Shown: piece by piece, positions 22,521-64,000 of the stretch | Position numbering within the stretch: position 1 is the first letter of the stretch | Layout: each line of letters begins with the position of its first letter | Assembly (NCBI GenBank): GCA_964354405.1 | Contig: CAYGZP010000001.1 | Location: 15,634 to 79,633, forward strand | Direction of reading: 5' to 3' | DNA length: 64,000 nucleotides | Origin: Candidatus Woesearchaeota archaeon | GTDB taxonomy: Archaea; Nanobdellota; Nanobdellia; Pacearchaeales; UBA284 | Translations under genes and position numbers: made by a program | Notes under the pieces: model-generated | What the model was told of the DNA's origin: nothing | Databases searched by the model: none | What the model saw: the letters and a program-made list of their open reading frames with translations, nothing else

Positions 22521-23399
22521 ATGGACTTGATAATATTGAGCGACATCTTGTTGTTTTCCATAGCTTTCGCGTTCTTGATATTCGCCTCGATAACCGACAT
22601 AAAGCGGCGAGAGGTTCCAAACTGGCTTTGTTTCTCATTGATCGCGATTGCTTTCTCCATAAGAATTCTTGCTTCAGTCCTAACATCCCAATTTTCATAC
22701 TTGTTTTATGCAATAATCGCCTTCATACTTTTCTTCATTCTCGCTAATGTGCTTTATTATGCAAAATTCTTCGGCGGGGGGGATGCAAAGCTCATTATGG
22801 CATTGGCGATTGTCTTCGCGACAACTCCCTCTTTCATAATAGCATCATCTTTAGAACTTTTCCAGGAGCCATTTCTCCTAAGTTTCCTGATAAACATTTT
22901 CTTCTTGGGCTCGGTTTACAGCATTTTCTTCATAATATTCTTCGCGATAAAAAATTATAGGAGCCTCAAAACAGAAATAAAAAAAATGTGGAAAAAAAGC
23001 AAGACAATGCGGATAATCTTTCTTGTTCTTGCTATAATCTCTCTTGCATTGACATATTTCTCAACACTATTTCTTCTATTCCCTGTAATCATCTTGCTGT
23101 TCCCTCTTCTCTATATTATAGTCAAGGCAACTGAGAACTCGTGCATGATAAAACTTGTCTCTCCGCGAGAACTGACAGAAGGTGACTGGCTTGTCGGTAA
23201 AATTAAAATGGGCAAAAAAATCATCAAGCCAAGCGTCCATGGCCTAAGCTCTCAAGACATCGCAGCATTAAGAAAAGCAAACAAAAAAGTTCTGATAAAA
23301 TATGGCATCCCTTTCGTGCCAGTGTTTCTCATCGCGCTTGTAGCCACAGCATTGTTCGGCGATTTGATTGTTCTAATAATCAAGGCATTCTTCTTTTAA
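22521..23399 (+). CDS. type IV prepilin / preflagellin peptidase (A24 family, PibD/FlaK-like)
   Basis: Catalytic Asp motifs ITDIKRREVPNWL and GGGDAKL in a polytopic membrane protein; 292 aa. Confidence 0.6.
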   Translation: MDLIILSDILLFSIAFAFLIFASITDIKRREVPNWLCFSLIAIAFSIRILASVLTSQFSYLFYAIIAFILFFILANVLYYAKFFGGGDAKLIMALAIVFATTPSFIIASSLELFQEPFLLSFLINIFFLGSVYSIFFIIFFAIKNYRSLKTEIKKMWKKSKTMRIIFLVLAIISLALTYFSTLFLLFPVIILLFPLLYIIVKATENSCMIKLVSPRELTEGDWLVGKIKMGKKIIKPSVHGLSSQDIAALRKANKKVLIKYGIPFVPVFLIALVATALFGDLIVLIIKAFFF

Positions 23400-36300: not shown

Positions 36301-39300
36301 GATACTGCCCTACTCCCAAGTATCCATAGCCATCTTTTACAAGATATTCTTCTGGGATAAACTGTTCATAATATCCTGATTTTGCTGGGCGTCTCAAATA
36401 TATTGAGTAATAAGCTCCCTGGTCATTTCCTGCAAATATGTAAGCAAAGACTTTGTAATGTGAGTCAGGAGATGCTCCTCCCATTGGAATCTCATCGAAC
36501 CATGCAGTTGCCTGTGTAGGAGACTCGGGCTTTGACAATTCATCCAAGAGATTAGACTGAGTAGGATATGTAGTTGAAACAAATTTCTTGCACACCTCAC
36601 TTCCAATCTGTCCTGTGCTTCTTGCTTTGAACGCATTGAAAGAGTTCAGCGCATAATAATCTGTGAAGTAACGAGCAGCATTTACTGATTGTTTCCATGA
36701 TTCAGAAAACAAAGCATACTCTCCTCCCCCTCTTGATGTTAACGATTCCGTAATCGCGGGAATTCCTGCCTTCAAAAAAGGATCTAATTGCTTCCAGAAG
36801 AACTCGCACATATAAACTGATGTTATCTGATCACAAATTCCAACTGTCTTGCCGCTCTTCAATTGTTCTTGCAGACAATCTCTCCCTGATTTCATTATTC
36901 CGATAAAACTATCAATGCCAGCATGGACTCCTGTCAAGCATATAGGAACTATAACACCCTTGCCATTATCAAAATTAGGCAAGCATAGGAGCAATGAACC
37001 CACAACTCCAGTTTGTACAACATCTTCAACAGGCATTCTCCCGCCGAAGTCGCATCTCGATGCAGGACACATCACAGGGTCGCATAAGTTATACATCAAC
37101 TTACAGTCACTCGCGCTCATGAAATCCTCGCATTGCGCAGAAGCTGTCGAGACAGGCGGTTTTCCAAGAGTATAATCGCCACAACTGGTGTGAATTTTTC
37201 TGTTTCCTGCCGCGAACTCGCGAATTGCTTCTGCCGAGCACTTTTTAGCTTTGTTAATCAAGTTCGAAGAACATCCAGGAGTAATGCAGCCCGCGATTTC
37301 TGGAACATTTCCTGTAGCCAACACAACTTGAGTGCAGCAATCATCTCCTAATGGCCCTGAACTATAATCAAAATTAGGCAAACCATCTACTCCAACATTA
37401 CAAATCCAGAAAGTGTTGATATCTCCACTCTCTTTCCAAGCAGCCATCGCACCTTCCAAGCCTGAGTAGCTTGTTGTCGCAACATACCATCCAGCTCTCG
37501 CGTCAACCGGCATCCATGCCACGAATCCTTCATAAACTCCAGACTCCCAGAACTTAATCTCGCTTCTGTGGGGAGTTTTAATCTCATTGTTGTTGCATAA
37601 AGTTATGTCGACTTCTTCGATATCAGGAACATTTATCTCGCGCAATCTTTTTTCAAGCGAAGGTTCTGTCAATGAGTTATAAAACTTTTGGACATTCCCA
37701 TCGCCATCAATCTTATACAATCTGTTGATAGTGAACTTGTGCTCTGCAGCAGAATCAACAACAGCGATGTAATAAGCTCCAAGATATGAGAAGGCGCTAT
37801 ATCTATCTCCAGCTAAAATTTGAGGATGAGTTCCAAATTTAATCTTATTAATGAAATTCAAATCAGCTCGATACACCTGTGCTTTCAATGACTGTGATTG
37901 TTGTGGCCTTGCAACAGTCGGACTAATCCCAAACTTGCTTGAGAACGCGCTCAATGTATTCAAATCTTTCACTTGTTCAGCTGTCTCTGCCAATGTTCCA
38001 TAACCTCCCTTGATTTTTTCCTGGCATATCGCTGAGTTGGCAATCTCACTCTGGCTTTTTCCCGAGCATTGCTTATAAATATCCAAATCCAAGACAATAT
38101 TCTTGACATCATCTTTGAACAATCTTCCGCTGCTGTAAAGTGTTGAGAAATTTCCCGCTATGTTTTCAGAATTAACAACATTATTCAATATCTTTGCGGT
38201 TTTGCTTTTATCCACGCTCGGCTTTGCTTCGAGCAATTTACTGATATTCGCATATGTAACCCCCTCGAACTCAATTGCTCCATCACCTAAAATAATCCGC
38301 CGCAATTCTTTTTGCTCATATACTTTTATTCCTTCCAGTTCCTGAGGAAAGTTCTTCTCAGCTTCTTCCATGAACTTTTCATCATTTACTGTTTTGCTTA
38401 ATCCAAGCAATCCCCCCGTGGTTGTAACTCCATTCTTCGATTTCACATCGCTGATAAACTTGTTTGTCTTGCTCAATGAGTTTTGAACCAATTCTATATC
38501 ATTATTAATCTCTTTTTCTTTGATTCTGTAACAATCCGAAATGCTCTTGGCATTGATGCCCTGTCTGTAAACTGAATCCGAGCATCTTTGAGTCCAAGGT
38601 TTCATGACAATTTTTCTTGCATATGCCTCGCCACTCAATCCCGAAACAAAATTCTTTATCCATAACACCCCCGCTCCAACCTGACAGACTTTCTTCCATG
38701 TTGTTACAATCTTTCCCAAATTATCGCGGATTTTTTCCAAGCTCGCTATGTTCTTGTTGAGTTTCTCTATAAGCTCGTTAGTTTTCTCAGGAGTAAGTTT
38801 AATAGCTCGCTTTTCAATTCCTATCGCAACTGTAAAATTAGTTATTGTTTCTCTTTCCTTTTCAAAAGGCAACACAGTAACTTTGACTTCTTTTTTTAGT
38901 GTTGTGCTTAAAAGTCTTACTTTAGTGCCGCTGAAGTACTGCCACGAGCCCGCTGCTAATGTAACTTCATTGTTTGTAAGATTTTTCAACCTAATACTTG
39001 TGTCATCTATCTCGCTTACGACCCAATCTCCAATTGTATCATCAACTGTGATTGTTGCTTTAGTATCATTCAACTCAACCTGAGCTTCCTTAGTCCCCAA
39101 ACCTGGCTTCTCAATTGAAATAAGCTCGATATGATAACTTCCGCTCGGCCTTGTCATTGAAACGCTTCTGTCGCCTGCGCCCGCAACAGCTCTTCTTAAT
39201 TCTTCTCTCGCGTTCTCAACTTCGCCGATAATCTCTGGCTCATCGCTCTGCGAATATTTATTAATCAGTTCTGTCAAGATTTCAGCCTGGTCAAGTTTTT

Positions 39301-40976: not shown

Positions 40977-42833
40977 TTATTTCAGTTGAATATTAACTTG
41001 GCTCGCGCCAATCAAGCTATAAATTTCTATCAGATCATTCAAGTTTGCAGGAATGCTGGAAGTCTCCGCGACAAGGCTGATTTTGCTCTTGCCTTTCAAA
41101 TCAGACTCGGTAACAAAAAATTGAGCTTGACCGCCGCCGAACAGAACATTTGTGAAAGATTGCTGAGGTACATCTAGCTCATAACACTGCTCTTGCATCT
41201 GTCCCATCATTCCGCCGATTCCTTCAACAGGAATCTTGACACAAGTCTCTCCTTTCTGTGCTCCAATCGTGATACTGGCTTCTTTATAGACATAAACTGT
41301 AACATTATAATTTCCCTCACTCAAATTAATCTTTTTCTGTTCAGGATAATATATCGATGAACTCGAACCCTGCGAACTGAAACTAATCAAAGCATACTCG
41401 CCTTGTCTCAAGTTAGGCATTTCAACATCTAACTCGTGTGTAGGGGCCAAAAACATGTTTAACACAACTGGTTCTGTAGTTGTGAACATAAGCCTAGATT
41501 CCTTGAATCCTTGAGCTTTCGCGATAATGAATCCGTTGTAGCATTGAGGAACTAAAGTCTCGAGTTTTGCCTTGCCCTCTATCATTTTTGTTCTGCCTAA
41601 GTTGCACACTTGGTTGAAACATTTGAATGAAACATCAGCCTCGACAGGCACAGAGTTCTCATCATAGCTAAAAATCTTTGCTTCTTGTGTTTTATAGTTG
41701 CATATATCAAACTCAACTTCACTAGACTCTGAAACTGTGGCGTTTCTTGCAACACTTTTATCTATAACAACAACTGTCGCGAACTGGAACAATTCGCCGT
41801 TCTTGTTCAACTGCACAACAACTGGATAATAAACATCATAGACAAAATGATAAGGAACATAACATAATCCAACCATTCCTAAAATTCCTAAACCTTCCTG
41901 CATTCCTATTGGTTCGGCTTTCATAATCTCTCCTTCAGTTGGCCATACTTCAATTCTCGAGTTCCACGCAGGAACATACAAGAAATATGCATTTGATGAG
42001 ACAGTTCCAACATCAACTTCAAAATATTTGTTCTCTGGCTTCGCCAAACTGTAATCGCTTCCCTTGACTTTCAGCGCAGCAATATTTCCTTCTAGCGCGC
42101 TCTTCAATTCCTGTTTAACCTCACTTACTTGCCAAATCTTGGGCGCACAGCTTAGCTCAATATCATCAACAGGCGCATAGAGCCTCAAAACATCGACAGA
42201 ATAATTCTCCAAGAACAAAGTTTTTTGCTCAGCTGTGAAAATTTTACCCGCATCATTGTAAAGCGCGCCAAAATTGCTCTTGGTCGTAATTTTGTGATTA
42301 GTTATCACAATACTTTGTTCATCCCAAGCCATTTTAATTGCCCACGCAACATTTGTTTCAATGCTCGAGCCCTTAATCTTTACATCAACAGCGGGCTCTC
42401 CGCTAATTTCAATTTGATAACCTTCTGATTTTATTGAAGTAAAATCACATTCCTTCACACTCTCGCTCAAATAATTTTCAAACTCGCTCTCGATGCTTGC
42501 AAGTGAGGGTTTTCTTTCTCTCGCGAGATTATTTCCCGAAACATAGAACCAGTAAGGGACTGACATTCCAAGATAATTCAACTGATTCGAGAAAGGCATG
42601 TACTCTGAGCCAGCTTCAAACTCCGGCATATCAATATAACCGCCCTGCATGCCCGCGATCTGGCTTGCTTCTTTGACTTTCACATCAACACAATCTTTAA
42701 AATAGTTCTCAGCAGGCTGCAGTTTTGAAGGCACAGTTACTTGTGGTTTTAGAAATAGGAAGGCTAAGAGAGCGAAAGCTACTATAACTATCGCTATAAT
42801 TATAAATAAAGTAACCTGTGCCTTCTTCTGCAT
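40977..42833 (-). CDS. 618-aa secreted protein with pilin-like (class III-type) N-terminus
   Basis: N-terminus MQKKA/QVTLFIIIAIVIVAFALLAFLFL resembles archaeal prepilin signals. Stop is 14 nt upstream of the giant protein start (same strand, probable operon). Confidence 0.45.
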   Translation of the reverse strand: MQKKAQVTLFIIIAIVIVAFALLAFLFLKPQVTVPSKLQPAENYFKDCVDVKVKEASQIAGMQGGYIDMPEFEAGSEYMPFSNQLNYLGMSVPYWFYVSGNNLARERKPSLASIESEFENYLSESVKECDFTSIKSEGYQIEISGEPAVDVKIKGSSIETNVAWAIKMAWDEQSIVITNHKITTKSNFGALYNDAGKIFTAEQKTLFLENYSVDVLRLYAPVDDIELSCAPKIWQVSEVKQELKSALEGNIAALKVKGSDYSLAKPENKYFEVDVGTVSSNAYFLYVPAWNSRIEVWPTEGEIMKAEPIGMQEGLGILGMVGLCYVPYHFVYDVYYPVVVQLNKNGELFQFATVVVIDKSVARNATVSESSEVEFDICNYKTQEAKIFSYDENSVPVEADVSFKCFNQVCNLGRTKMIEGKAKLETLVPQCYNGFIIAKAQGFKESRLMFTTTEPVVLNMFLAPTHELDVEMPNLRQGEYALISFSSQGSSSSIYYPEQKKINLSEGNYNVTVYVYKEASITIGAQKGETCVKIPVEGIGGMMGQMQEQCYELDVPQQSFTNVLFGGGQAQFFVTESDLKGKSKISLVAETSSIPANLNDLIEIYSLIGASQVNIQLK

Positions 42834-45758: not shown

Positions 45759-46289
45759 TTATGCTTTCACTTTCTCAACTTTCACAACTCGCAACTCGCA
45801 AACAGCCAAAGGATAGACTTTTTTCAAGCGCTTTGACAATTGTCTTTGTAAAATCCCTGTTATCACAGCTTGGAAAATCTGGTCTCTCGTTCTTTCAACA
45901 GCTGTCTTCTCTAAAAAGTCCCGGGCATCATCCCTCAAAGCTTTCATAACGCTTCTGTGGACTTTTTTTCTCGTGATAAGGAAAGGTTTTATTCTCAAAG
46001 CACAATCTTGGGCCTTGACAACAAAGGAATCTTCTACAATGCTGATGTTATGTCCAATTAATCTTCGTATATAAGAAGGATATATCGTGAAAGAGTATAT
46101 CTCGCCGATCATCTCATTCTCAATTTTCTTCACAAGAAATTTTGCCTCACAGTTCTTGCCCTTCAAAATCTTTGTTAAATCCAGCTTGACAACTCTTCCA
46201 ATCAAAAGGTCAGCGTTTGTCGTGAGCAATGGAACTATAGAATCTAATACTTCAAGCCTTACATCAAAAAATTTCTTTTTTTCAACCAT
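45759..46289 (-). CDS. rps3ae: 30S ribosomal protein S3Ae (eS1)
   Basis: Block similarity to archaeal S3Ae (LIGRVVKLDL; YIRRLIGHNISIVED; KVYPLAVCELRVVKVEKV); 176 aa. Confidence 0.6.
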   Translation of the reverse strand: MVEKKKFFDVRLEVLDSIVPLLTTNADLLIGRVVKLDLTKILKGKNCEAKFLVKKIENEMIGEIYSFTIYPSYIRRLIGHNISIVEDSFVVKAQDCALRIKPFLITRKKVHRSVMKALRDDARDFLEKTAVERTRDQIFQAVITGILQRQLSKRLKKVYPLAVCELRVVKVEKVKA

Positions 46290-46668: not shown

Positions 46669-47235
46669 TTATTTTTCTTCGTCTATCAAGGCGGTTTTGC
46701 CGTCTGTCACGAGTATTTCTGCGATTTCTTTCGGCAAATTAGCAACATCACCCTTTTTGAAAGGCCCTAATTCATTGCCATTACTGCCAAAAAATGCGGG
46801 CACTTCCTCTTTAAACCTCACGAAGAGATTTTTTAAATCTTTCTCCTCTTTGACTTGTCCTTCTAATATTGCAGCAACATTCTGATGGTTCTGCTCAAGT
46901 TGTTTCACAGCAACATTAAAGAGTTCTTGTTCATGCACCAAAAGACTTTCAGTGTCGCGCCTACTTATCCCTGTCGCAGCAGCTACAAAAGCCAAATCCA
47001 AAACTTTTCTTTGCCTAATAGCTAATATCTCTTTGATTATACTCAAGGCATTGTCAAGTTGTTTTCGAGTCATTCGTAAAGTGTCAGAAAACAAGTTGCC
47101 TTCTCTCGCAACAATGCTCTTTTTCTCGTTTAAATAAGTGCCAACTTCCTGTAAAAAGTTCTCGGGAAGCGTTTGCAGAGCTTCATTATATTTCTCTTTG
47201 CGCAACACGTCATAAATTTCTTGGTAAGTTATCAT
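46669..47235 (-). CDS. hypothetical helical protein
   Basis: 188-aa ORF; no confident family. Confidence 0.25.
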   Translation of the reverse strand: MITYQEIYDVLRKEKYNEALQTLPENFLQEVGTYLNEKKSIVAREGNLFSDTLRMTRKQLDNALSIIKEILAIRQRKVLDLAFVAAATGISRRDTESLLVHEQELFNVAVKQLEQNHQNVAAILEGQVKEEKDLKNLFVRFKEEVPAFFGSNGNELGPFKKGDVANLPKEIAEILVTDGKTALIDEEK

Positions 47236-53465: not shown

Positions 53466-53954
53466 TTATCCGCCTTTCTTAGTCAAAAGCCATGCTGCGA
53501 ATATAGTTAATCCTACAAGAAGAACTATCCCCAATATCTGCGGCTGTAGCAAGAATGCCTTGGGCTCGCCCATATACTTGTTTATTACATCTGCAAAAAC
53601 ATAAACTGCCGAAACTAGAAAAATTACAATCAAGACAATCACAATGAACCATGCAAATCCAGGCTTGAAAACTTTTTCCATAGTTTCTTTTCCCATCAAG
53701 CCGACAATCAGCCCAATGAAAAGCAATGAAACAACTAGCGCAGCAAACCACGGCGTCACAACCTTGACATATTCAATCGCGTTCGCAGAAACAAGAAATA
53801 TAATTGCGATGGCAAAACTAGTAAGGATATGGACAAACTTGTTCTCTCCAAGTAATTTTGTCTTGCCAAGCAAAGCATAAGTAACGACAAATACAAGCAA
53901 AAATCCAAACACTGGAACGAAAGTGCCTATTCCAGTCAAATCAATCTCAACCAT
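53466..53954 (-). CDS. small polytopic membrane protein, tandem paralog 1 of 3
   Basis: Shares the LLVFVVTYALLGKTKLLGE-type motif with the next two genes; 4-5 TM helices. Confidence 0.4.
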   Translation of the reverse strand: MVEIDLTGIGTFVPVFGFLLVFVVTYALLGKTKLLGENKFVHILTSFAIAIIFLVSANAIEYVKVVTPWFAALVVSLLFIGLIVGLMGKETMEKVFKPGFAWFIVIVLIVIFLVSAVYVFADVINKYMGEPKAFLLQPQILGIVLLVGLTIFAAWLLTKKGG

Positions 53955-53989
53955 TTTATTATTTTATTTTTTAATTTTTAACTTTTGAT

Positions 53990-54535
53990 TTACTGCGAAC
54001 TGATAGTGCCAAGTTTCTTTCCTTTCTCGCCGCCAACTCCAACGACAAGCGCGACAATGACAAAAGCAACTATGAACACCAATATTAAAGCAGCTGAGTT
54101 TTGCTGCATCCAGTAAAAGGCATTTGCCCCGAAAACATATGTAAAAAATCCTGATTTAGCTAAAACAACTAAAAGTAAAATGAACCCCCCAATTCCAAAA
54201 ACCCATTGCCATGTTTTTTCTTCAGGTTTAAATGCTATTCCAAGCAATATAATCATGACAAGCAATATCGCGATTCCTATTGCCAAGTTTGAGAACAGAT
54301 ACATAAAAAACACAGAAACATAAGGATTTGTTATCGCGAAAAACGCCAAAACAAGCGCAATGACAAGGTTGACTCCCCTGTTCTTGAAAATATTGATTTT
54401 TTCCAATATCGCGAAAACAAGAGTAAACACAAGTAACAAAGGCAACAAGACATCGAATATTCCGAACTGCGCCCATTGGTCTATAACAGTTCTGAAAGAA
54501 CTCATGCCCCAACCATAATCAGTCAATCCGTCCAT
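53990..54535 (-). CDS. small polytopic membrane protein, tandem paralog 2 of 3
   Basis: Motif LLPLLLVFTLVFAILEKINIFK; 181 aa. Confidence 0.4.
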   Translation of the reverse strand: MDGLTDYGWGMSSFRTVIDQWAQFGIFDVLLPLLLVFTLVFAILEKINIFKNRGVNLVIALVLAFFAITNPYVSVFFMYLFSNLAIGIAILLVMIILLGIAFKPEEKTWQWVFGIGGFILLLVVLAKSGFFTYVFGANAFYWMQQNSAALILVFIVAFVIVALVVGVGGEKGKKLGTISSQ

Positions 54536-54600
54536 TTTCCAATCCTCTTTATTATCTTCCTTAATTTATTCTAATCAAAGACCTTTTATATATTTTTCTT

Positions 54601-55086
54601 TTAACTCGAAGGTTGCTTGCCCTTCGCCGATAGCACTAGCGCGACAGCCCCGCCCAAAATCACTAAAAATACTACAACTCCGACTGTTCCTGCAGTTATG
54701 CTTCCTGTCAACTTGTCTAAAACTCCTGCAGCCCATAAAACTGCTGCAATGAAAGCCAAGCCAAAGATTATTCCTAGAGCAATCTGCAATCCCTTGACTT
54801 TATGGATATCAATAAAACCAAACACTAGAAAGTAGCCAAGTAAAATAACAAGGAACACCGCGATAAGCGGCAATAATCTTAGAGTGAATCCAACCATGCT
54901 CTGGGCCCCTATAAACAACAAGCCAATAATTATGGCTATAATCAGATTAGCATATCTCTTCTCCTTGCCCAAAAGCTCGGTTTTTTCAAGTATCGCAAAA
55001 ATAACGACAAAAACGAGCAAGAAAGGAAGTAATATATTCGATAAAAAAGGACTTGAGAGTATCCCCAAGGTTTGTGCATCACCCAT
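54601..55086 (-). CDS. small polytopic membrane protein, tandem paralog 3 of 3
   Basis: Motif LLPFLLVFVVIFAILEKTELLGK; 161 aa. Confidence 0.4.
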   Translation of the reverse strand: MGDAQTLGILSSPFLSNILLPFLLVFVVIFAILEKTELLGKEKRYANLIIAIIIGLLFIGAQSMVGFTLRLLPLIAVFLVILLGYFLVFGFIDIHKVKGLQIALGIIFGLAFIAAVLWAAGVLDKLTGSITAGTVGVVVFLVILGGAVALVLSAKGKQPSS

Positions 55087-55541: not shown

Positions 55542-57740
55542 TTGGGCGATTTTCCTGATATTTTGACAAAAAGAGGCATGGTAACGAAAGACGAAGTTAG
55601 AGATATCTTAAAAAGTTATGAAGCCAAGATAGCGCGCGAGTTGAAAGAGGAGGCTCCGAGCGATTATTCTGTTGAATACAACAAATTCAGAGAAGAAACT
55701 TTAGCTTCCTTGAATTCTTATGAGAGCGCTTGCAAAAACTTCGGCAAGATTATATCGCTAAAGCTCAATGAGAAAGACGAAGCTAAGATCAAGAGATCTA
55801 TAGAAACAGCACATCTTGAAATAGAACCAAGCCAGGCAGCTGGGTTAGCAGTCTTCGCTCTCATCGCCGGCATTTTCATAACTCTCCTCATCTCAGTCGC
55901 GATTTATCTGTTGACAGAAACTATTCCTACATTAATTTTCATGCTTTTGTTTTTTGTTTCAATCTTTATTTTCTATTATCTTAATACCATGCCGCAAAGA
56001 TTAGAGCAGAAATGGCGCTTAAAGGCCTCAAGCCAGATGGTCCCATGCATCTTGTATCTTGTGGTATATATGAGACACACAAGCAACATGGAGAGCGCTA
56101 TAAGATTCGCCTCGCAGCATCTACAGCCTCCACTCTCTCTTGATTTGAAAAAGATATTCTGGAATGTCGAGACAGCGAAATTCGCCACGATAAAAGATGC
56201 CTTAGACGCTTATCTGGAGACATGGCGCGAGTACAGCATCGAGTTTGTCGAAGCCATTCATCTTGTCGAATCCTCCCTGTACGAGCCACAAGAATCAAGA
56301 AGAATCTCAATTCTCGAGAAAGCTTTGGAAGTTATGCTCGACGGAGTTTACGAAAAAATGCTGAGATACACACATGATGTCCAATCTCCTATAACAAACA
56401 TCTACATGTTGGGCATTGTCCTGCCAACTCTTGGCCTCGCGTTATTACCTTTAGCTTCAACTTTGCTACAAGGTGCGATTCAATGGTATCATGTCGCGAT
56501 ATTATTCAACATAATTGTTCCTTTCCTTGTTTTCTACATGACTAATCAAGTGCTCAGTAAAAGGCCAGGGGGTTTCGGAGAAACCGAGCTCCTTGAGAGA
56601 AATCCCGAATACGCGAGCTACAAAGACAAGAGTCATTATTTCACAGCAGCTTTAATCGCACTTCCCTTCTTTATCATAGGAATTCTGCCGTTATTAATGC
56701 AATTTGGATTAGCAGATGCTTTAGGAATCCAATCAGATTACAGCTTCGAGCAGCTAGGCATTGGTTTCTTTGGCAATCAGACAATGTTCGACTTCAAAAC
56801 AGCTGAAAATGGAGCAACAGTCGGCCCGTTCGGCCCTGTCGCGCTGCTCCTAAGTATTTTAATTCCGTTTTCAATTGCATTATTTTTCGCGATAGCTTAC
56901 AAGTTAAAGACTCGGAAGCTCATAGAAACAAGAAACAAAACAAAAAACCTTGAGCAAGAGTTTTCGTCATCGATATTCCAATTGGGCAATAGACTTGCTG
57001 ATGGAATTCCAGCTGAAATGGCTTTCGGCCGAGTTGCAAGTTCATTGAAAGGAACACCAACAGCGGGCTTCTTTAATACAGTAAACATGAATATCCAGCA
57101 AGCAGGCATGAGCGTAGAACAGGCGATATTCAATCGCTCCCGCGGCGCGATTAATTTTTATCCAAGCGAGCTAGTCAAGACATCGATGCAGATTCTGATT
57201 GAATCAGTAAAGAAAGGTTTACAAGTTGCCGCTCGAGCATTAATGGCAATAAGCGATTATGTTAAGAACATCCACAAAGTCAACGAGAGATTGAAAGACC
57301 TGCTCGCAGAAATCACAAGCGGAATGAAAAGCAACATGACTTTCCTTGCTCCTCTCCTCGCTGCGATAGTGGTGGGATTGGCATCAATGATAACCATGAT
57401 TCTCTCAAGATTACAGTTGATGCTAACAGTGGGCGATCTCTCTGGCACAGAAATGATTGGAGGCATGGGCATCAGTGCGATAACCCAGATGTTCGATGTA
57501 GTAAAAATGATTCCGCCCTTCTGGCTCCAAGTTATCGTAGGAATTTACTTAATAGAAATAATCTTCATTCTTACTCAAACCCTAGTTACAATAGAATCTG
57601 GCGAAGACAGATTGAGCGAGAAAGCAGAAATAAGCAAAATGTTAATGACAGGCATGACTCTTTACACACTCGCGGCATTCATATCAGTAATCGCCCTAGC
57701 CGCATTGGCAGCGGTCGCAGTCTCGGGGATTGTTGTTTAA
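55542..57740 (+). CDS. polytopic membrane protein, candidate FlaJ/TadC-like (T2SS-F-like) pilus platform protein
   Basis: 732 aa with two groups of TM helices separated by cytoplasmic helical domains (AIRFASQHL...; second after residue 450). Size, topology and location beside prepilin-like genes fit an archaeal pilus platform. Sequence-level assignment is tentative. Confidence 0.4.
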   Translation: MGDFPDILTKRGMVTKDEVRDILKSYEAKIARELKEEAPSDYSVEYNKFREETLASLNSYESACKNFGKIISLKLNEKDEAKIKRSIETAHLEIEPSQAAGLAVFALIAGIFITLLISVAIYLLTETIPTLIFMLLFFVSIFIFYYLNTMPQRLEQKWRLKASSQMVPCILYLVVYMRHTSNMESAIRFASQHLQPPLSLDLKKIFWNVETAKFATIKDALDAYLETWREYSIEFVEAIHLVESSLYEPQESRRISILEKALEVMLDGVYEKMLRYTHDVQSPITNIYMLGIVLPTLGLALLPLASTLLQGAIQWYHVAILFNIIVPFLVFYMTNQVLSKRPGGFGETELLERNPEYASYKDKSHYFTAALIALPFFIIGILPLLMQFGLADALGIQSDYSFEQLGIGFFGNQTMFDFKTAENGATVGPFGPVALLLSILIPFSIALFFAIAYKLKTRKLIETRNKTKNLEQEFSSSIFQLGNRLADGIPAEMAFGRVASSLKGTPTAGFFNTVNMNIQQAGMSVEQAIFNRSRGAINFYPSELVKTSMQILIESVKKGLQVAARALMAISDYVKNIHKVNERLKDLLAEITSGMKSNMTFLAPLLAAIVVGLASMITMILSRLQLMLTVGDLSGTEMIGGMGISAITQMFDVVKMIPPFWLQVIVGIYLIEIIFILTQTLVTIESGEDRLSEKAEISKMLMTGMTLYTLAAFISVIALAALAAVAVSGIVV

Positions 57741-57779: not shown

Positions 57780-58886
57780 TTATTTTGAATTCCTAAACGC
57801 ATCTTCTAAATTAATAAATTCCCCCCTATCCTTATTATAGGGCATTACTCTTAGAATATTTTGGTTATCATCAACATAAACTAAATAAGTATCTCTATCT
57901 CCCATCCTTAGGTCTTCATTTAAAGGCACTATACAAGTTATTTTAAAACAATTATTGCCCATTAGAACCACCTCTTCTAATTTTATTTTGTAAGAGTCAG
58001 TATAATCAATATTAGTATTGGGATTCTCATACTGTGTAATCTCAAAAGAAGTTGGTGTTAATCTTCTATAAGATATTGAGTCTAATCCCTCTGGAAGCGG
58101 GCACTGAGCTTTGAGATAATTCAAGATATATTCTAGAGACTTTGCAAAAATCTCTTCTTTCCACCTTTCTCCTAAATTTCCTTCTAAATTTTCCGTAGTT
58201 TGCTTTTTTATTTCATAATATCCTTCGCGCAAGCCCAAGTTCTCAAGACTTGCTAAAGGTGTAGAACTTTTGCCATGGCAAAGCCAAACATTGTCTTCTA
58301 TATATCTGGCAATTTTTCTTCCATTTCCATAAATATCGTTTTCGCCAACTGCAAAAACCATTTTCCTTGAAGCTGCAAACTCGCGAGCAGCGCCGACAGT
58401 TATTTCATCAAAAGGTGGGCTGTTAGGATAAATTCGCTTAAGTTTGTTGGGATTAAGTCTCTCATACATTCCTGCCTTGTAATTGCCATTAACGTCTCTG
58501 CCTTCATAATCTGAGGTCCATATTTTTCTACCATTCACATCTTTTATTAAAAAATCTCCAGAAGGATCTATGGCTTTTTTATCGCTCAGCGCTCTGAAAG
58601 AAGCATTGACAACAACATAATATCGTTTAAGCTCTCTTCCGGGATCATCCTTTGGGGGAATTGGATCAATAAGAGAATCTAAATAAACTTTATTAATTTT
58701 TACAGCAATATCCTCCATTATTCTCCAATAACTGCCGTCGTATCCAAACTCCCAAGAATCCCAATATTTCCAATCAACGTTATCTTTTACTCTTTCCATT
58801 TCTTCATATTCTTCTGCTTCTTGAGCTTTAATTAAAGCAGGCGTAAGAAATAGACTAGAAATTAAAAGCCAAGTTTTCCATCCCAT
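57780..58886 (-). CDS. secreted hypothetical protein
   Basis: Sec-type signal MGWKTWLLISSLFLTPALIKAQ; W/Y-rich; 368 aa. Confidence 0.4.
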   Translation of the reverse strand: MGWKTWLLISSLFLTPALIKAQEAEEYEEMERVKDNVDWKYWDSWEFGYDGSYWRIMEDIAVKINKVYLDSLIDPIPPKDDPGRELKRYYVVVNASFRALSDKKAIDPSGDFLIKDVNGRKIWTSDYEGRDVNGNYKAGMYERLNPNKLKRIYPNSPPFDEITVGAAREFAASRKMVFAVGENDIYGNGRKIARYIEDNVWLCHGKSSTPLASLENLGLREGYYEIKKQTTENLEGNLGERWKEEIFAKSLEYILNYLKAQCPLPEGLDSISYRRLTPTSFEITQYENPNTNIDYTDSYKIKLEEVVLMGNNCFKITCIVPLNEDLRMGDRDTYLVYVDDNQNILRVMPYNKDRGEFINLEDAFRNSK

Positions 58887-58927: not shown

Positions 58928-59107
58928 ATGCGATATAAAGGGGGTAAAAGCAACAAGAAAGGAAAAAAGGGCGTTGAGCGCGAAGTCATAGCATGGGTCA
59001 TAGCATTATTGGTTCTTGCGTTCGCAGTAATCTTAATATTGATTCTTAACAAACAGGGCATAAACGTCATAGATAAAATAAAAGAGTTTTTGCGCTTCGG
59101 AAGATAA
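58928..59107 (+). CDS. small prepilin-like protein (class III signal peptide); not in ORF track
   Basis: Manual translation: MRYKGGKSNKKGKKG/VEREVIAWVIALLVLAFAVILILILNKQGINVIDKIKEFLRFGR, 59 aa. Confidence 0.4.
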   Translation: MRYKGGKSNKKGKKGVEREVIAWVIALLVLAFAVILILILNKQGINVIDKIKEFLRFGR

Positions 59108-59141: not shown

Positions 59142-59774
59142 ATGTCATTTGATATATGGGTTATCATAAAGATGATTCTTGGTTTAGTTTTGGTTCTCGG
59201 AGTTGCCTATCTCCTATTCATCGGCCCTGGCAAGCAGCTTTTGATTAGTCTAGGGGTTCTCGGGGGCATGGCAAAAGAAGCTCAAGAATTCAGTGATAAC
59301 AATTTTAATGCTCTATCACAAAAAATTTCATCGTGTCAGGCAATGAAAGATTCAAACTGTTTATGCGAGATTTTTCCTTCGTGGCCAGCAACTTTTGCGA
59401 AAGATTCTGTACTTGTAATCAAAGCGACTGGAAAAGATACATTATTAGAATGGAAATATAATAATAAAGTTTACAGAACACAGATTATAAGCAACTTGTT
59501 CCTGAGCGCAAAAGAAATCGAGACAAAACAGGATATTACTTTCTCATCAACTAAAAACTTGAACTGGAAAAGCGAACCCCCAACATTTGAGCAAGAGGGT
59601 TTGGGAAGCAAGGGTTTCTTAGGTTCTCCCATAGGAAAAAAAGAGTACAAAGTCGTGAGCAGCTCAGTTTACAAAACAGAAAATGGTTTATATCTGTTAA
59701 TTTCAAGAGAAACTCAAAACAAATTATCTGAGCTAGAGCCAATGCTGAGCGCTATAAAGAAATGCAGTTCATAA
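59142..59774 (+). CDS. membrane-anchored hypothetical protein in pilus-like locus
   Basis: N-terminal hydrophobic anchor IWVIIKMILGLVLVLGVAYLLF; 210 aa. Confidence 0.35.
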   Translation: MSFDIWVIIKMILGLVLVLGVAYLLFIGPGKQLLISLGVLGGMAKEAQEFSDNNFNALSQKISSCQAMKDSNCLCEIFPSWPATFAKDSVLVIKATGKDTLLEWKYNNKVYRTQIISNLFLSAKEIETKQDITFSSTKNLNWKSEPPTFEQEGLGSKGFLGSPIGKKEYKVVSSSVYKTENGLYLLISRETQNKLSELEPMLSAIKKCSS

Positions 59775-59838: not shown

Positions 59839-60216
59839 ATGAATAAGAAAGCTGTTGAGATGAATGTGAACACAATAATTATAGTGATTCTTGCGATACT
59901 TGTTCTAGTGATTTTGGCTTTATACTTTACAGGAGGTATGACTAATCTTTGGCAAAAGATAACACCAATAGCTCCAAGTTATGATGTCGGCGATATCACA
60001 AGAGCAAAACAGTTCTGTGCGACTTTATGTTTGAGCAACGACAAAATTTCTTATTGTAACTATGTTGCGGCATTGCCAAAGAAAGATGCGCAAAACAAAA
60101 CAGTAGGGACAGATAATAAGCATTGCTGGGAATCTCCTATAAAAGCTTACCAAGAAGCTGAATGTAAAAATGTTGGCTTCGACGACCCAGAATTTTGTAC
60201 AGCTCCGGCAGAATAA
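59839..60216 (+). CDS. prepilin-like protein (class III signal peptide)
   Basis: MNKKA/VEMNVNTIIIVILAILVLVILALYF; Cys-containing globular domain; 125 aa. Confidence 0.5.
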   Translation: MNKKAVEMNVNTIIIVILAILVLVILALYFTGGMTNLWQKITPIAPSYDVGDITRAKQFCATLCLSNDKISYCNYVAALPKKDAQNKTVGTDNKHCWESPIKAYQEAECKNVGFDDPEFCTAPAE

Positions 60217-60246: not shown

Positions 60247-60429
60247 ATGCACAACAAGAAAGGCTTAGAGCTTCCTATCAATACAGTTATTATTATAATT
60301 CTTGCACTAATCACGCTAGTAATTCTTTTGTTGATTTTCTCCAGCTCGATGAGGCAAGTAGTCGGGGATTTGATGACAAAGATAAAAGGCGCTTTCGGAT
60401 TCTGGAACGCAACTCAAGTAACCCCGTAA
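60247..60429 (+). CDS. minor prepilin-like protein (class III signal peptide)
   Basis: MHNKKG/LELPINTVIIIILALITLVILLLIF; 60 aa. Confidence 0.5.
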   Translation: MHNKKGLELPINTVIIIILALITLVILLLIFSSSMRQVVGDLMTKIKGAFGFWNATQVTP

Positions 60430-60479: not shown

Positions 60480-61571
60480 ATGGATAAAAGAGGCATTCTC
60501 TTAAAGCAGATAATAGAAATCTTAATTGCTGTTGCGATAGTCGTGATAATAATCATAGCAGCCCAAAGATTCTTCGCAACCTATTTCGGAAATCAAAAAG
60601 ATATGCAGGCAAAAGGGACTCTAGATAAAATAACCCAAATCTTAGGAAATTTGACAGAAGCTGAAACAAAGAGGTATGTGTTACAAAGTCCAGGAGGATG
60701 GTACATTGTAGCTTTCGATGCCCAGCATAATGAAAACAATAAATTCGCAAAGCCACAGAAATATGTTAATCAAAATTTGTTATGCATTTGCGACAAGAAA
60801 TGTTCAATCTGCCAGACAATAGCTCTGCCATTGATGCATAACGAGACTCTTGCATTTGTTAAGATAGGGCTTTCGGATATATGGCTAACAAATGCTAAAA
60901 CATATTACAATATTAGTAAAGTCAAGGCAACTGTTTCATCAACGCTCACAGAACAGGAAAAAACAGAAATTTCATTAAAAACCACAACAACAAATCAAGC
61001 AATAACAAACAATAATTATCAGCCAGCCATCGATTCAGCTGTAAGCAAATATTATCCAGAAGTGAAAGAATATATTGCAAATCAACAAGAATTCGCAAAA
61101 ATTATCAAAGCCATAATCGCAATAGAATCCCAAGGTGTATGGAACGCTGTAGGTAGAGATGGGGAAGTTGGCTTGATGCAGTTGATGCCGCAGACAGCCG
61201 ATGCTCTCGGTTTGAAAATTTATGATCCTGATAACAAATTCACAGGACAGGGATGGAATTTTGTAGACTCGCAATACAGCCAAACCAGTTATTACAACTC
61301 TCTCAAAACTCTTGCATCCTCAAAAACCAAGGCTGAGCTCATAGTGATAGACGAGCGCTTCGACGAAACAAAAAATATAGACGCAGCAACAAAACATTTA
61401 GTCTCATACATCAAACAATTCCAAGATTACGAACTTGCTATCATAGCATTCAACGCCGGAGGCGGCGGGGTAACAAACAACTGTAGGCCCCAAGTCATAA
61501 CAGCCTGCAATGTAAATTTTGACGGTTACAAATATTTCCAGAAAGTAAAAACAGCAATGGAGAGCGCATAA
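60480..61571 (+). CDS. prepilin-like N-terminus fused to a family-1 lytic transglycosylase (SLT) domain
   Basis: MDKRG/ILLKQIIEILIAVAIVVIIIIAA, then IIAIESQGVWNAVGRDGEVGLMQLMPQTA (catalytic E-S and GLMQ motifs) and IIAFNAGGGG (AYNAG-like). Confidence 0.6.
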   Translation: MDKRGILLKQIIEILIAVAIVVIIIIAAQRFFATYFGNQKDMQAKGTLDKITQILGNLTEAETKRYVLQSPGGWYIVAFDAQHNENNKFAKPQKYVNQNLLCICDKKCSICQTIALPLMHNETLAFVKIGLSDIWLTNAKTYYNISKVKATVSSTLTEQEKTEISLKTTTTNQAITNNNYQPAIDSAVSKYYPEVKEYIANQQEFAKIIKAIIAIESQGVWNAVGRDGEVGLMQLMPQTADALGLKIYDPDNKFTGQGWNFVDSQYSQTSYYNSLKTLASSKTKAELIVIDERFDETKNIDAATKHLVSYIKQFQDYELAIIAFNAGGGGVTNNCRPQVITACNVNFDGYKYFQKVKTAMESA

Positions 61572-61678
61572 AATGGAAACTGAAATGCTTGTAAGAATCA
61601 TTATAATCGTAGTGCTTTTTGCAACTATAGGCGCGGGAATTTTCTTTTTGCTGAAGCGCTTTGGTGTTGTTTAAATCT

Positions 61679-62023
61679 TTACCATTCTTTTATTTTTTTA
61701 ATTTGAGTTATTCTGCCTTTATCGTAATCAATCATAATTTCATAAGCGCCTTTCTCCTTTTCTTTTTGCATAATCAAAAGATGCTTTCCTTTTCCTTCAC
61801 TTTCGCTTTGCTTTTCAAAATGATAATCAATCTTTTGTCCGTCGTCATAAAAAGTTGACATTTCATAAGGATAGTTAGAATATCTAAAGTTTTTAGCACT
61901 ATCCTCCAATTTGCTAACAAGAGAAGGAGAAATATCCTTACTTCCACCACAGCCAATCAAAAAAAGCAATCCAACACCGGCCAAAAGACTTTTTAATTTA
62001 TTTTCAATTGAATTAGTTGTCAT
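61679..62023 (-). CDS. putative lipoprotein
   Basis: Probable start at internal Met (MTTNSIENKLKSLLAGVGLLFLIGC, lipobox LIGC); the ORF-track N-terminal extension up to 62197 is unlikely to be real. Confidence 0.35.
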   Translation of the reverse strand: MTTNSIENKLKSLLAGVGLLFLIGCGGSKDISPSLVSKLEDSAKNFRYSNYPYEMSTFYDDGQKIDYHFEKQSESEGKGKHLLIMQKEKEKGAYEIMIDYDKGRITQIKKIKEW

Positions 62024-62075
62024 GCACTTAATTAAAAAGGAAAGGTTTATTAAATTTATTGTTATTAAAAATACA

Positions 62076-62981
62076 ATGAAAAATAAAAGAGGCATGACAG
62101 TGCAATCCATGCTCATTGGTATTATTATCACAATTTTGTCAGCTGCGATAATTTTTCTTTTTTTGAGAGCATTTCCATTCACGAGCACAGTTGACAAAGA
62201 AGCCTGTCATAATTCTGTTATTCTAAGAAATAATGCGCTGCTCCGAGGCGAAGGCATTTTGCCTGAAACAATCCCCCTCAATTGCAAAACTCAAGATATT
62301 AAAATCTCCACATCGAATGAAGAAGTCATCAAGCGCGATATAGCCAATTCAATGTATGACTGCTGGTGGATGATGGGCGAAGGCAAGATGGACTTTTTTT
62401 CTGAAAGTGCTTGGCGTGATTGGGGGGTTCCTGGCGCCGGGACAGCAAAATCAAGCTGTGTCATCTGTTCAACAATCACTTTTGAAGAAAACGCTCAAGG
62501 CCATCAAGTTGATTTGTTAAGTTATCTCGAGCAGACAAGGGTTCCATCAAAAAATTTAACATATCTTGAATATCTTAGCCAAGAAGAAAAAGCAGAGTTA
62601 CCAACGGAAATTAAGGTAGAAAAGTTAGACACAAATCAAAATTATGCAATAGTTTTTATGTCAATAAAAGGGGCAGATATAGTGGGAGAAATTAAAAATT
62701 ATATAGGATTTGGCGGCACCACGGCCTTTTTCGTTCCTCGTCTTTTAGCTAAAGGCCTAACTAAAATAGGAGTAAAGGGAGCGACAAAACTAATTCCTGT
62801 TGTTGGTTGGATCATAGCTATAGCAGAAGCTGCCGGTCACACGATTACCTTCTTTACTTCAGCGCACGCAGCCGCAATGCACTGTGATGGTGAGCGCGAA
62901 GGTTGTAATGCTATAATTTTAACCCCGCTAACAGCATCAGACATCGCAGCCCAATGCCAAAACATAGAAAGCATTCCTTAA
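62076..62981 (+). CDS. prepilin-like protein (class III signal peptide), about 300 aa
   Basis: Probable start MKNKRG/MTVQSMLIGIIITILSAAIIFLFL, internal to the ORF-track call 61911..62981; Cys-rich globular part. Confidence 0.45.
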   Translation: MKNKRGMTVQSMLIGIIITILSAAIIFLFLRAFPFTSTVDKEACHNSVILRNNALLRGEGILPETIPLNCKTQDIKISTSNEEVIKRDIANSMYDCWWMMGEGKMDFFSESAWRDWGVPGAGTAKSSCVICSTITFEENAQGHQVDLLSYLEQTRVPSKNLTYLEYLSQEEKAELPTEIKVEKLDTNQNYAIVFMSIKGADIVGEIKNYIGFGGTTAFFVPRLLAKGLTKIGVKGATKLIPVVGWIIAIAEAAGHTITFFTSAHAAAMHCDGEREGCNAIILTPLTASDIAAQCQNIESIP

Positions 62982-62997
62982 ATTTTAATTCTATAAT

Positions 62998-63813
62998 TTA
63001 ATCTGATCCAACTTTTTTGATATTTGTTATCTTTTGTTTCCAGAAGTCTATTGTAAGTTTATAATAATCCCTTCGATCCTGGATTTTTACCATTAAACCA
63101 TAATTATGTACTCCCGTTTTTATATCTCCCCCTTCCTCTAATATATAGAAAACATTTTGTTTCGAAGATTGATCATAAATTTCTCCTGTAAGTCTGTGAA
63201 CAAAAAAATACATCCCATCTTCTAAGTCAGAGATTGTTGTTTCTTTAACTGCTTTTTCTTCTATTTCCTTTCTAACAAGGGGAGGAATTCCGCCGGGATT
63301 AATCGAAGAAAACAAATTCCCTATATTCTTCTTTACATTAGAATAAGTTTCATTAACAACATCTCCGATATTTTTTCCTTTTGGTTTGTTAGTTTGTTCT
63401 TCTGTTGGTTGTTCTTGCGATATTTTGCCCCTTCCTATTGGAACAAGTTTTATATTTTTATCAGCAATCACAAGAGTTTCTCCTTTAAAAAAATAAGAAG
63501 AAGAAGATTCAATAGACCATATGAAAGCTCCTGGGTTCAATTTGGGATCAAGATAATAATTCTTCGATCCCCACTCGTCTGAAAACATCTTATTTTTTTC
63601 TTCATACACATAATACTCCATATATTGACCATTAGTTTTTCTTAGATGATTATTTTTAGAAAACTCCCAAATGTTTCCATTATTTACATCTCTCCATTTA
63701 TGCGCCTGCATTCTCTTCAAATCTCCTTGTTCAGCATTTGCAATTTTTGGCACGCCGAGTAAGAAATATAACAAGCCTCCAAATATCAAAAAATTCCTTA
63801 ATCCTTTTCCCAT
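62998..63813 (-). CDS. secreted hypothetical protein
   Basis: N-terminal signal MGKGLRNFLIFGGLLYFLLGVPKIANA; 271 aa. Confidence 0.4.
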   Translation of the reverse strand: MGKGLRNFLIFGGLLYFLLGVPKIANAEQGDLKRMQAHKWRDVNNGNIWEFSKNNHLRKTNGQYMEYYVYEEKNKMFSDEWGSKNYYLDPKLNPGAFIWSIESSSSYFFKGETLVIADKNIKLVPIGRGKISQEQPTEEQTNKPKGKNIGDVVNETYSNVKKNIGNLFSSINPGGIPPLVRKEIEEKAVKETTISDLEDGMYFFVHRLTGEIYDQSSKQNVFYILEEGGDIKTGVHNYGLMVKIQDRRDYYKLTIDFWKQKITNIKKVGSD

Positions 63814-63874: not shown

Positions 63875-64000
63875 ATGATAAAGAATAAAAGAGGCTTCGA
63901 GATAGGATGGGAATTTTTCTTCAACTTGCTTTTTGTTGTAGCCATAATCATAACAGTTACTGTATGGATTAATTCTCAATCTTCCGGAGGAGCAATGAAA
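63875..64000 (+). CDS. prepilin-like protein, 5' partial (runs off window)
   Basis: MIKNKRG/FEIGWEFFFNLLFVVAIIITVTVWI. Confidence 0.4.
   Translation, partial: MIKNKRGFEIGWEFFFNLLFVVAIIITVTVWINSQSSGGAMK

Follow-up and report, generated by a model that had tools for sequence, protein, structure and literature searches.

A lytic transglycosylase domain on a pilin-like carrier in an archaeal filament locus: a candidate modular pilin family with exchangeable murein hydrolases

Which wall could a murein hydrolase attack when it is encoded by an archaeon, and why does its gene lie among those of a pilus-like filament? The question is raised by a stretch of 64,000 bp from a Candidatus Woesearchaeota archaeon (GTDB: Pacearchaeales; contig CAYGZP010000001.1 of assembly GCA_964354405.1, positions 15,634 to 79,633; hereafter the window), in which an ATG-initiated open reading frame on the + strand (60480..61571; N-terminus of the product MDKRGILLKQIIEILIAVAIVVIIIIAAQ) codes for a bimodular protein of 363 amino acids (aa) with a pilin-like carrier and an SLT lytic transglycosylase domain. 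An earlier, sequence-only reading had proposed a pilus-tethered murein glycosidase directed against a bacterial wall. The sequence data support this proposal: the gene is situated in a filament locus, and the domains grafted onto the same carrier in related proteins are, where recognisable, all murein hydrolases. Since the archaeon makes no murein, the target of the enzyme would be a bacterial sacculus. Taken as a whole chain, from a modular type IV pilin-like protein with an exchangeable murein hydrolase to its action on a contacted bacterium, this explanation is regarded as probable, by a modest measure.

Concerning the enzyme module, the C-terminal part of the protein (aa 181-362; 61020..61565, +) is assigned to the SLT domain of family-1 lytic transglycosylases (GH23) by profile match, structure comparison and conservation. 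It matches the Pfam family SLT (PF01464) over residues ~190-340 (E=6.7e-18; 64.8 bits versus a cut-off of 21.3), and a precomputed match to the same family exists for 19 of 19 full-length homologues, which share 31-59% identity with the protein and are 344-388 aa long. The catalytic motifs announced in the sequence-only reading (AIESQG, GLMQLMPQTA, AFNAGGGG) are all found in the product; the family as such exhibits the motifs E-S, G-L-M-Q-x-M-P, D-E-R-F-x3-K-N and A-[YF]-N-x-G. Among 34 SLT-bearing family members, with identities down to ~31%, Glu216 (the catalytic residue; codon GAA, 61125-61127) and G231 are present in 34, Q234 in 33, and Ser217 and G327 in 32, and the aromatic position 324 of the last motif is Y or F in all 34 (Phe in the window protein). 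A non-conserved catalytic glutamate, which had been named beforehand as an observation that would speak against the proposal, is thus not found. A cysteine pair (Cys335/Cys343) is likewise conserved within the domain.

The AlphaFold2 model of the full protein, calculated with 17 family members, has a mean predicted local distance difference test score (pLDDT) of 88.7; values mostly exceed 90 in the SLT part, with an insert around aa 250-270 being less confident. In a Foldseek search against the PDB, lytic transglycosylases and goose-type lysozymes rank at the top: MltD (E=8e-6) is followed by MltE, Slt70, MltC, MltF, Cj0843 and g-type lysozyme, with a probability of 1.00 for MltD, MltE, Slt70, MltC, MltF and g-type lysozyme, and the matches include a GH23 chitinase (3w6f/3w6e). 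A phmmer search against PDB sequences yields MltC and EmtA/MltE and, more weakly, the phage tape-measure protein gp41 and T7 gp16, aligned over E-S...GLMQLMP; the closest viral family in PHROGs is the 'lytic tail protein' phrog_2013 (E=1.6e-15). The profile and structure searches that had been suggested as a check therefore both lead to this enzyme class, and at the level of sequence and modelled fold the domain appears catalytically intact.

The carrier module (aa 1-155; 60480..60944, +) begins with a putative class III (prepilin-type) leader, MDKRG (60480..60494, +), for which the motif predicts cleavage after Gly5. Leader and hydrophobic stretch (MDKRG/ILLKQIIEILIAVAIVVIIIIAA) are recognised by a FlaFind-style rule, i.e., [KR][GA] within 25 residues, followed by a 16-residue uncharged hydrophobic window. 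In the close family, K3 is invariant and G5 is conserved in at least 90%; in the wider carrier family (~25% mean identity), [KR][GA] is found in 136 of 149 members and the residue at +1 is allowed by FlaFind in 87%, the 13 members without [KR][GA] mostly looking like truncated start calls. A model of the carrier alone (AlphaFold2, aa 1-155; 19 sequences, two of them from relatives whose C-terminus differs; pLDDT 88.4) consists of one continuous helix (residues 3-57), hydrophobic in its first ~25 residues, which is packed against a beta domain of eight short strands. As modelled, this layout of helix plus sheet resembles the 'ladle' arrangement of type IV pilins; a Foldseek search with the carrier model returned no match. 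Between the modules, secondary structure assignment on the full model (DSSP) places a helical linker at aa 158-177 (60951..61010, +), the beginning of which is marked by the conserved motif L-[ST]-E-x-E-K. Two separately folding modules are thereby joined by a helix, as in the definition of modular pilins (PMC8179133), in which the added module is one unrelated to pilus biology and varies on a given carrier.

The beta domain contains the motif CxCx3Cx2C (C102, C104, C108 and C111; 60783-60815), of which C102 is invariant and the other cysteines are conserved in at least 90% of the 149 family members. It could represent two disulfides or a metal site and is the best sequence signature of the carrier family.

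Two proteins (P0017 and P0018) with an N-terminal half 45-53% identical to that of the SLT protein possess a C-terminal glucosaminidase domain (PF01832) in place of SLT. When a profile of the N-terminal module was searched against 1.84 billion representative proteins, 1684 members were found at E<=1e-3 (372 at E<=1e-10), whose lengths are bimodal, with ~150-180 aa (the module alone) and ~280-460 aa. In the best 149 of these 1684 members, Pfam recognises the following grafts: SLT in 21, glucosaminidase in 10, VanY/Peptidase_M15 in six, Amidase_2 and the 3D domain in four each, and DUF5715 in one, overlapping M15 matches. According to these assignments, every Pfam-recognisable graft is a murein hydrolase, and together their predicted targets comprise the glycan strand (at two different bonds), the amide between N-acetylmuramic acid (MurNAc) and L-Ala, and the stem peptide. 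An Amidase_2 fusion, a VanY/M15 fusion and a graft-less form of 157 aa occupy the same slot in the same archaeal locus (loci L087, L088 and L089, respectively), always flanked by RPA and RadA and variously by T2SSE, a HIT-Peptidase_A24 pair, aS21 and EF1-beta. The carrier is present as a single copy per locus and exhibits faint similarity to the adjacent pilin-like genes. It is thus fixed in one slot of the filament locus, either standing alone or joined to SLT, glucosaminidase, Amidase_2, VanY/M15 or 3D, and since one carrier in one slot bears varied murein hydrolases, the arrangement behaves like a 'warhead on a pilin' that is open to exchange.

The range of grafts also bears on the substrate. 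The enzyme might act on another polymer of N-acetylglucosamine (GlcNAc), namely chitin, chito-oligosaccharides, the pseudomurein of a methanogenic host, or a surface glycan of the archaeon itself: GH23 includes chitinases, the Foldseek matches comprise the chitinase 3w6f/3w6e and g-type lysozymes, a preprint on Omnitrophota speculates on SLT domains acting on pseudomurein, and the hosts of the DPANN archaea cultivated to date are archaeal throughout (PMC11291902). However, the carrier in the same slot bears Amidase_2 (MurNAc-L-Ala amidase) and VanY/M15 (D-Ala-D-Ala or stem-peptide peptidase), whose target bonds are absent from chitin and exist only in murein-type walls, so that the family points to bacterial peptidoglycan and not to chitin or the archaeon's own glycans. 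A giant protein with an M23 peptidase domain is encoded in the same window, and the best structural and sequence matches of the SLT domain are murein lytic transglycosylases. A non-murein substrate is therefore considered quite improbable.

Concerning the genomic surroundings, the description of a 'pilus-like locus' in the sequence-only reading proved to be real. The FlaFind-style rule flags six + strand genes of the window (starting at 58928, 59839, 60247, 60480, 62076 and 63875), whereas in the rest of the 64 kb its matches are scattered and different in appearance; in the related loci L001 and L003, 10-11 consecutive genes are flagged. The window also contains a prepilin (class III signal) peptidase of the family Peptidase_A24 (22521..23399, +; PF01478, E=3e-15, above the cut-off), which matches the NCBIfam model FlaK_Arch with E=4.5e-12, below the cut-off; in L087 and L088 the HIT-Peptidase_A24 pair directly adjoins the pilin cluster. 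A T2SSE ATPase is found in every longer syntenic locus (L001, L003, L087, L089), ~7 kb (L003) or ~8 kb (L001) downstream of the SLT gene. In L087, it heads the cluster and is followed contiguously by a 90-aa gene, a membrane protein of ~706-710 aa and the pilin-like genes. The corresponding membrane protein of the window (720 aa, polytopic; 55578..57740, +) is a candidate platform (TadB/C- or FlaJ-like) by the names of its homologues and by context. It has more than 3400 homologues; among the best 120 of these (57-100% identity), any NCBI name attached is almost always 'Candidatus Pacearchaeota archaeon', and several homologues carry the JGI label 'Flp pilus assembly protein TadB'. By these names, the source is a DPANN archaeon of the Pacearchaeota type.

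From these components, the following mechanism is proposed. The protein would be inserted into the membrane via its class III-type N-terminus, and MDKRG would be removed by the A24 peptidase of 22521-23399. Its hydrophobic helix alpha1 would then allow the T2SSE ATPase and the ~720-aa membrane protein to incorporate the protein into a filament of short pilins or to place it at the filament tip; the analogous modular pilins of bacteria (PMC8179133) suggest that it is probably a tip subunit or one of low abundance. The helical linker would present the GH23 domain outside the cell, where the enzyme would cut MurNAc-beta-1,4-GlcNAc bonds of the sacculus of a touched bacterium, and the opened wall might allow the archaeon to attach to a bacterial host or prey, to penetrate it or to lyse it. 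More generally, the Pacearchaeota-type DPANN filament might constitute a cross-domain wall-breaching device, with a warhead at the tip or on a minor pilin that is swapped among at least five murein-hydrolase classes, presumably tracking wall chemistry; this extension is tentative and judged somewhat less than probable.

Several points weigh against the proposed filament mechanism. An enzyme acting from outside has direct access to murein only in bacteria that are monoderm or lack an outer membrane; the murein of diderm bacteria would be shielded by the outer membrane, unless this is breached by other factors. The T2SSE ATPase lies beyond the end of the window, and the ~720-aa protein has no detectable T2SSF/FlaJ signature (Pfam at E<=10, NCBIfam, and a family profile against the PDB), so that its platform role is putative. 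About half of the long carrier proteins possess C-terminal modules without a match in Pfam, PHROG or PDB sequences, which limits the generalisation to murein hydrolases to the recognisable domains. Finally, the 'textbook' prepilin signal of the sequence-only reading holds at the level of the motif, with MDKRG and a hydrophobic helix being present, whereas no class III signal or archaeal pilin profile matches the protein in Pfam (E<=0.1) or NCBIfam (E<=1); because such profiles are short and insensitive, the missing match weakens membership among pilins without excluding it. Among the homologues, moreover, 0-6 residues, often acidic, are situated between KRG and the hydrophobic core, a spacing that is tighter in canonical pilins.

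The missing pilin profile match, the variable spacing and the weak fold similarity of the carrier to pilins would equally suit a surface-anchored ectoenzyme that is not a filament subunit. The helix would then be a signal anchor or a processed class III anchor, similar to bindosome proteins, and the SLT domain on its short stalk would cut foreign murein at the contact zone or scavenge wall debris for amino sugars and peptides. Archaeal prepilin peptidases do process non-pilin substrates, e.g., substrate-binding proteins (PMC4858521), and these archaea are regarded as scavengers with minimal metabolism (PMC8204110). On the other hand, the gene has a fixed position inside 10-11 pilin-like genes beside an ATPase and a membrane protein, the same slot can hold a graft-less form of 157 aa, as expected of a structural component, and the carrier as modelled resembles pilins in its layout of alpha1 plus beta-sheet. 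The ectoenzyme is accordingly taken as an unlikely, if serious, alternative to the filament subunit.

The unassigned C-terminal modules fall into several groups (P0208/P0209/P0210/P0252/P0282/P0290/P0292; P0221/P0278/P0283; P0168/P0182) and many singletons, and they are candidates for new wall-active or adhesive modules.

A lytic transglycosylase in such a locus could also be a 'space-maker' that was acquired together with bacterial machinery and is now vestigial or used for the producer's own wall. Specialised lytic transglycosylases such as VirB1, FlgJ, EtgA and BfpH accompany bacterial trans-envelope machines. In NCBIfam, the SLT domain exhibits weak similarity to EmtA and to BB0259, a lytic transglycosylase of flagellar assembly (E=1.4e-5 for BB0259, which falls far short of the cut-off), and like the window gene, VirB1, FlgJ, EtgA, BfpH and BB0259 represent SLT-family enzymes inside a filament or secretion locus. 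However, enzymes of the VirB1 type open the sacculus of their own producer, whereas here the producer is an archaeon without a sacculus, in whose lineage the papers found report no murein synthesis, and the enzyme, rather than being a periplasmic accessory, forms a fusion with a pilin-like module. The swapping of the graft for amidases and carboxypeptidases and its fusion to a pilin-like carrier would be unexpected for a space-maker, the locus is archaeal in type (Peptidase_A24/FlaK-like), and the strong conservation of the catalytic residues indicates that the domain is not vestigial. This explanation is disfavoured as very improbable.

SLT domains are overwhelmingly bacterial; a scan of GTDB genomes with the SLT motifs matched nearly exclusively bacteria, with a single match in Woesearchaeota, and was dominated by distant bacterial SLT proteins. 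A bacterial gene mis-joined to an archaeal contig, or contamination, would account for this, and the GC content of the contig has a dip (0.27-0.30) at 4-12 kb. Yet the locus itself has a GC content of 0.35-0.36, which is typical for the contig, and the low-GC stretch, at a distance of 50 kb, contains housekeeping genes. Archaeal markers are distributed over the window: TFIIB/TFB (30644-31594), Gins51 (46669-47235), ribosomal protein S3Ae (45759-46289), a GAN/Cdc45-like DHH-CID protein (25656-27065), SRP54 and FtsY. The identical SLT protein is recorded on a 420-kb NCBI contig and two Logan contigs, and two relatives with 43-45% identity (P0009, P0010) occur in ENA, JGI and NCBI assemblies with matching gene order: SRP54, four small membrane genes on the minus strand and a ~724-aa membrane protein are followed by genes of 51-58, 195, 119-120 and 58 aa, the SLT protein, genes of 39-41 and 299-331 aa, four pilin-like genes, RPA, RadA and a T2SSE ATPase of 766 aa. 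The archaeal frame of SRP54 upstream and RPA and RadA downstream is kept in five independent assemblies, and the SLT gene appears to be coupled in translation to pilin-like genes of the archaeon. Because this synteny is common to independent assemblies and the homologues of neighbouring genes are named Candidatus Pacearchaeota, a bacterial/archaeal mis-assembly is excluded; the chimeric contig that had been listed as a possible objection can be considered refuted for practical purposes. A prophage origin was also considered and is ruled out by the housekeeping flanks with conserved synteny. A scan for bacterial sigma-70 promoters and terminators remained at chance level, its consensus being bacterial and not applicable to an archaeon.

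The design found here is most similar to that reported for bacterial modular type IV pilins, such as the Streptococcus sanguinis proteins PilB, which bears a vWA module, and PilC, which bears a lectin module (Raynaud et al. 2021, PMC8179133). Both share the logic of carrier, linker and effector, and the bacterial proteins, too, are encoded in pilus loci, with a tip location proposed and many alternative grafts per carrier. Despite this general similarity, there are differences: the bacterial proteins have the class III motif IPR012902 and mostly adhesive or lectin modules, archaea are outside the survey, and the searched text names a peptidase module and no murein hydrolases. The archaeal carrier has a DPANN-specific fold, CxCx3Cx2C and no detectable sequence relation to IPR012902, so that the likeness is one of design and not of homology.

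In Crenarchaeota, the bindosome is composed of solute-binding proteins for uptake, which mature through an A24 peptidase and depend for their assembly on a system similar to that of type IV filaments. The Sulfolobus bindosome and the other substrates of PibD, whose range is broad (PMC4858521), equally place an extracellular domain on a class III N-terminus in archaea; the cargo here, however, is a wall-degrading enzyme in a DPANN archaeon, and the carrier has a globular pilin-like domain of its own. Phage tail and virion lytic transglycosylases (T7 gp16, SLT tape-measure proteins, 'lytic tail protein' PHROGs) likewise present SLT on a filamentous delivery structure and attack the wall from outside, whereas the gene described here belongs to an archaeal cell and not to a virus, has housekeeping genes at its flanks, and codes for a pilin-like carrier and not a tail protein.

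Within the lineage, SLT as such would be ordinary. Large extracellular proteins with SLT (up to 3000 aa) are found lineage-wide in Woese- and Pacearchaeota, with binding or degradation of the walls of bacteria as their proposed role (PMC8204110); SLT proteins in single genomes were reported by Rinke 2013 and Castelle 2015, as cited in PMC8204110, 'large lytic murein transglycosylases' were taken as a hint of predation (Vigneron et al. 2022, PMC9723730), and such proteins are mentioned again in PMC10936187. The window protein shares with these large proteins (PMC8204110, PMC9723730) the lineage, the SLT/GH23 family and the proposed purpose, but is set apart by description through its length of 363 aa (344-388 aa in the family), the pilin-like module, the slot in a filament locus and the interchangeable hydrolases; the giant proteins of the window itself possess Peptidase_M23 or NosD/beta-helix domains and no SLT. 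Secreted archaeal peptidoglycan hydrolases (Strock et al. 2025, PMC12352652) have in common with it that archaeal murein hydrolases are directed against bacteria; the killing of bacteria by such hydrolases is demonstrated experimentally in a halophilic archaeon, the main text mentions neither pilin nor pili, and DPANN transglycosylases appear only through a citation of Vigneron et al. Pilins and pili are unmentioned in PMC8204110, PMC9723730 and PMC10936187 as well, and peptidoglycan, murein and transglycosylases do not appear in the 2016 census of type IV pili in archaea (PMC4858521) or in a 2026 preprint on the type IV filament machinery of archaea. The literature consulted, a full-text search included, yielded no account of archaeal murein hydrolases that are pilin-borne and exchangeable. 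Already known, therefore, are the SLT enzyme family, the hypothesis of wall attack at the level of the lineage, and the modular-pilin principle in bacteria; new are their combination, the carrier family and the pattern of cassette exchange.

Bacterial hosts of the very abundant Pace- and Woesearchaeota are debated and have been argued mainly from the large SLT proteins. A family of pilin-borne exchangeable hydrolases would be much stronger genomic evidence for bacterial murein as a routine target, and an enzyme on a filament offers a concrete delivery mechanism that is testable with small soluble constructs. Graft type may predict the wall type of the host, and as a marker it could guide co-culture attempts; the compact cell-wall lytic enzymes are possibly useful in themselves. 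The 'modular pilin' principle would be extended to Archaea and to enzymatic cargo. If the proposed mechanism is true, it would constitute the first molecular mechanism for episymbiosis or predation of an archaeon on a bacterium, and the carrier family the first enzyme-bearing modular pilin family in Archaea. What merits follow-up is the pilin-like carrier in its fixed filament-locus slot, with at least five swapped classes of murein hydrolases.

Concerning the remaining genes of the cluster, the first on the + strand is a pilin-like gene of 59 aa (58928..59107; KKG and a hydrophobic helix), with orthologues of 51-58 aa at the equivalent position in L001, L003, L087 and L089. It is followed by a 210-aa protein with an N-terminal membrane helix (59142..59774, +), a conserved cluster member without Pfam family (orthologues 195-205 aa), by a pilin-like gene of 125 aa (59839..60216, +; MNKKA/VEMNVNTIIIVILAILVLVIL; orthologues of 119-120 aa in L001, L003 and L089), and by a Flp-like short pilin candidate of 60 aa with a class III motif (60247..60429, +; MHNKKG/LELPINTVIIIILALITLVILLL), which matches Pfam Flp1_like below the cut-off (E=6.3e-4) and, weakly, the profile of the carrier N-module. 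Downstream of the SLT gene, a single-helix protein of 33 aa (61573..61674, +) has its ATG 1 nt past the SLT stop codon, and this distance of one base suggests co-transcription. Its orthologues (39-44 aa; L001, L003, L089) have a KKG leader, those of 39-41 aa in L001 and L003 reading MKNKKGITSEILIK..., whereas the 33-aa peptide (METEMLVRIIIIVVLFATIGAGIFFLLKRFGVV) lacks the N-terminal KKG and is thus a plain single-helix peptide in this genome. A pilin-like protein of 301 aa (62076..62981, +; MKNKRG/MTVQSMLIGIIITILSAAIIF; orthologues of 299-331 aa in L001 and L003) and the start of a further pilin-like gene, truncated by the window boundary (63875..64000, +; MIKNKRG/FEIGWEFFF...; orthologues of 115-116 aa at 12601-12951 in L001 and 12211-12558 in L003), complete the cluster.

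Three genes on the minus strand (57780-58886, 61679-62197 and 62998-63813) interleave with the pilin cluster and encode secreted proteins without family matches in Pfam. Two of the three products have Sec-type signal peptides, the one of 172 aa has a lipobox-like LIGC, and those of 61679-62197 and 62998-63813 share a similar C-terminal motif (...IDYDKGRITQIKKIKEW and ...IDFWKQKITNIKKV). L001 and L003 possess a gene of 248-263 aa at the first of these positions and lack a counterpart at the remaining ones. Between SRP54 and the 720-aa protein, three small multi-helix membrane proteins of 161-181 aa are encoded (53466-55086, -); this group, together with a gene of ~96 aa, is conserved in L001, L003 and L089 without family assignment and may contribute additional components to the filament machinery. 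An RPA-like ssDNA-binding protein and the RadA recombinase directly follow the pilin-like cluster in five of five related loci (L001 14735-16729; L003 14371-16374; L087 11639-13667; L088 7252-9474; L089 13924-15970). This adjacency may be the mere synteny of streamlined genomes, or it could hint at a filament for DNA uptake coupled to bacterial lysis.

Elsewhere in the window, the giant M23 protein (33353-40963, -) has a length of 2536 aa, a Sec-type signal peptide and the Peptidase_M23 domain at aa 1902-2007 (E=6.4e-23), which by this match is a second murein-directed activity in the window. The adjoining gene (40977-42833, -) codes for a 618-aa protein with a very canonical class III-like leader (N-terminus MQKKAQVTLFIIIAIVIVAFALL), which on this account would be a further pilin-like protein, here paired with a giant wall-targeting protein. 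Three paralogous genes for class I tRNA synthetases of the Trp/Tyr type (PF00579; 6796-7896, +; 7886-8935, +; 10723-11703, -; E=3.9e-33, 2.7e-28 and 4.5e-60) lie within 5 kb in the stretch with a GC content of 0.27-0.30, a threefold redundancy that is unusual in a reduced genome. The product of 11821-12813 (+), 330 aa long, matches Por_Secre_tail, the C-terminal sorting domain of the bacterial type IX secretion system, with E=2.7e-5 and 24.8 bits (cut-off 27), an odd similarity for an archaeon. The neighbouring gene (12822-18629, -) encodes a protein of 1935 aa with NosD/right-handed beta-helix repeats (E=1.6e-16); a NosD/beta-helix protein is also situated near the pilus locus in L089.

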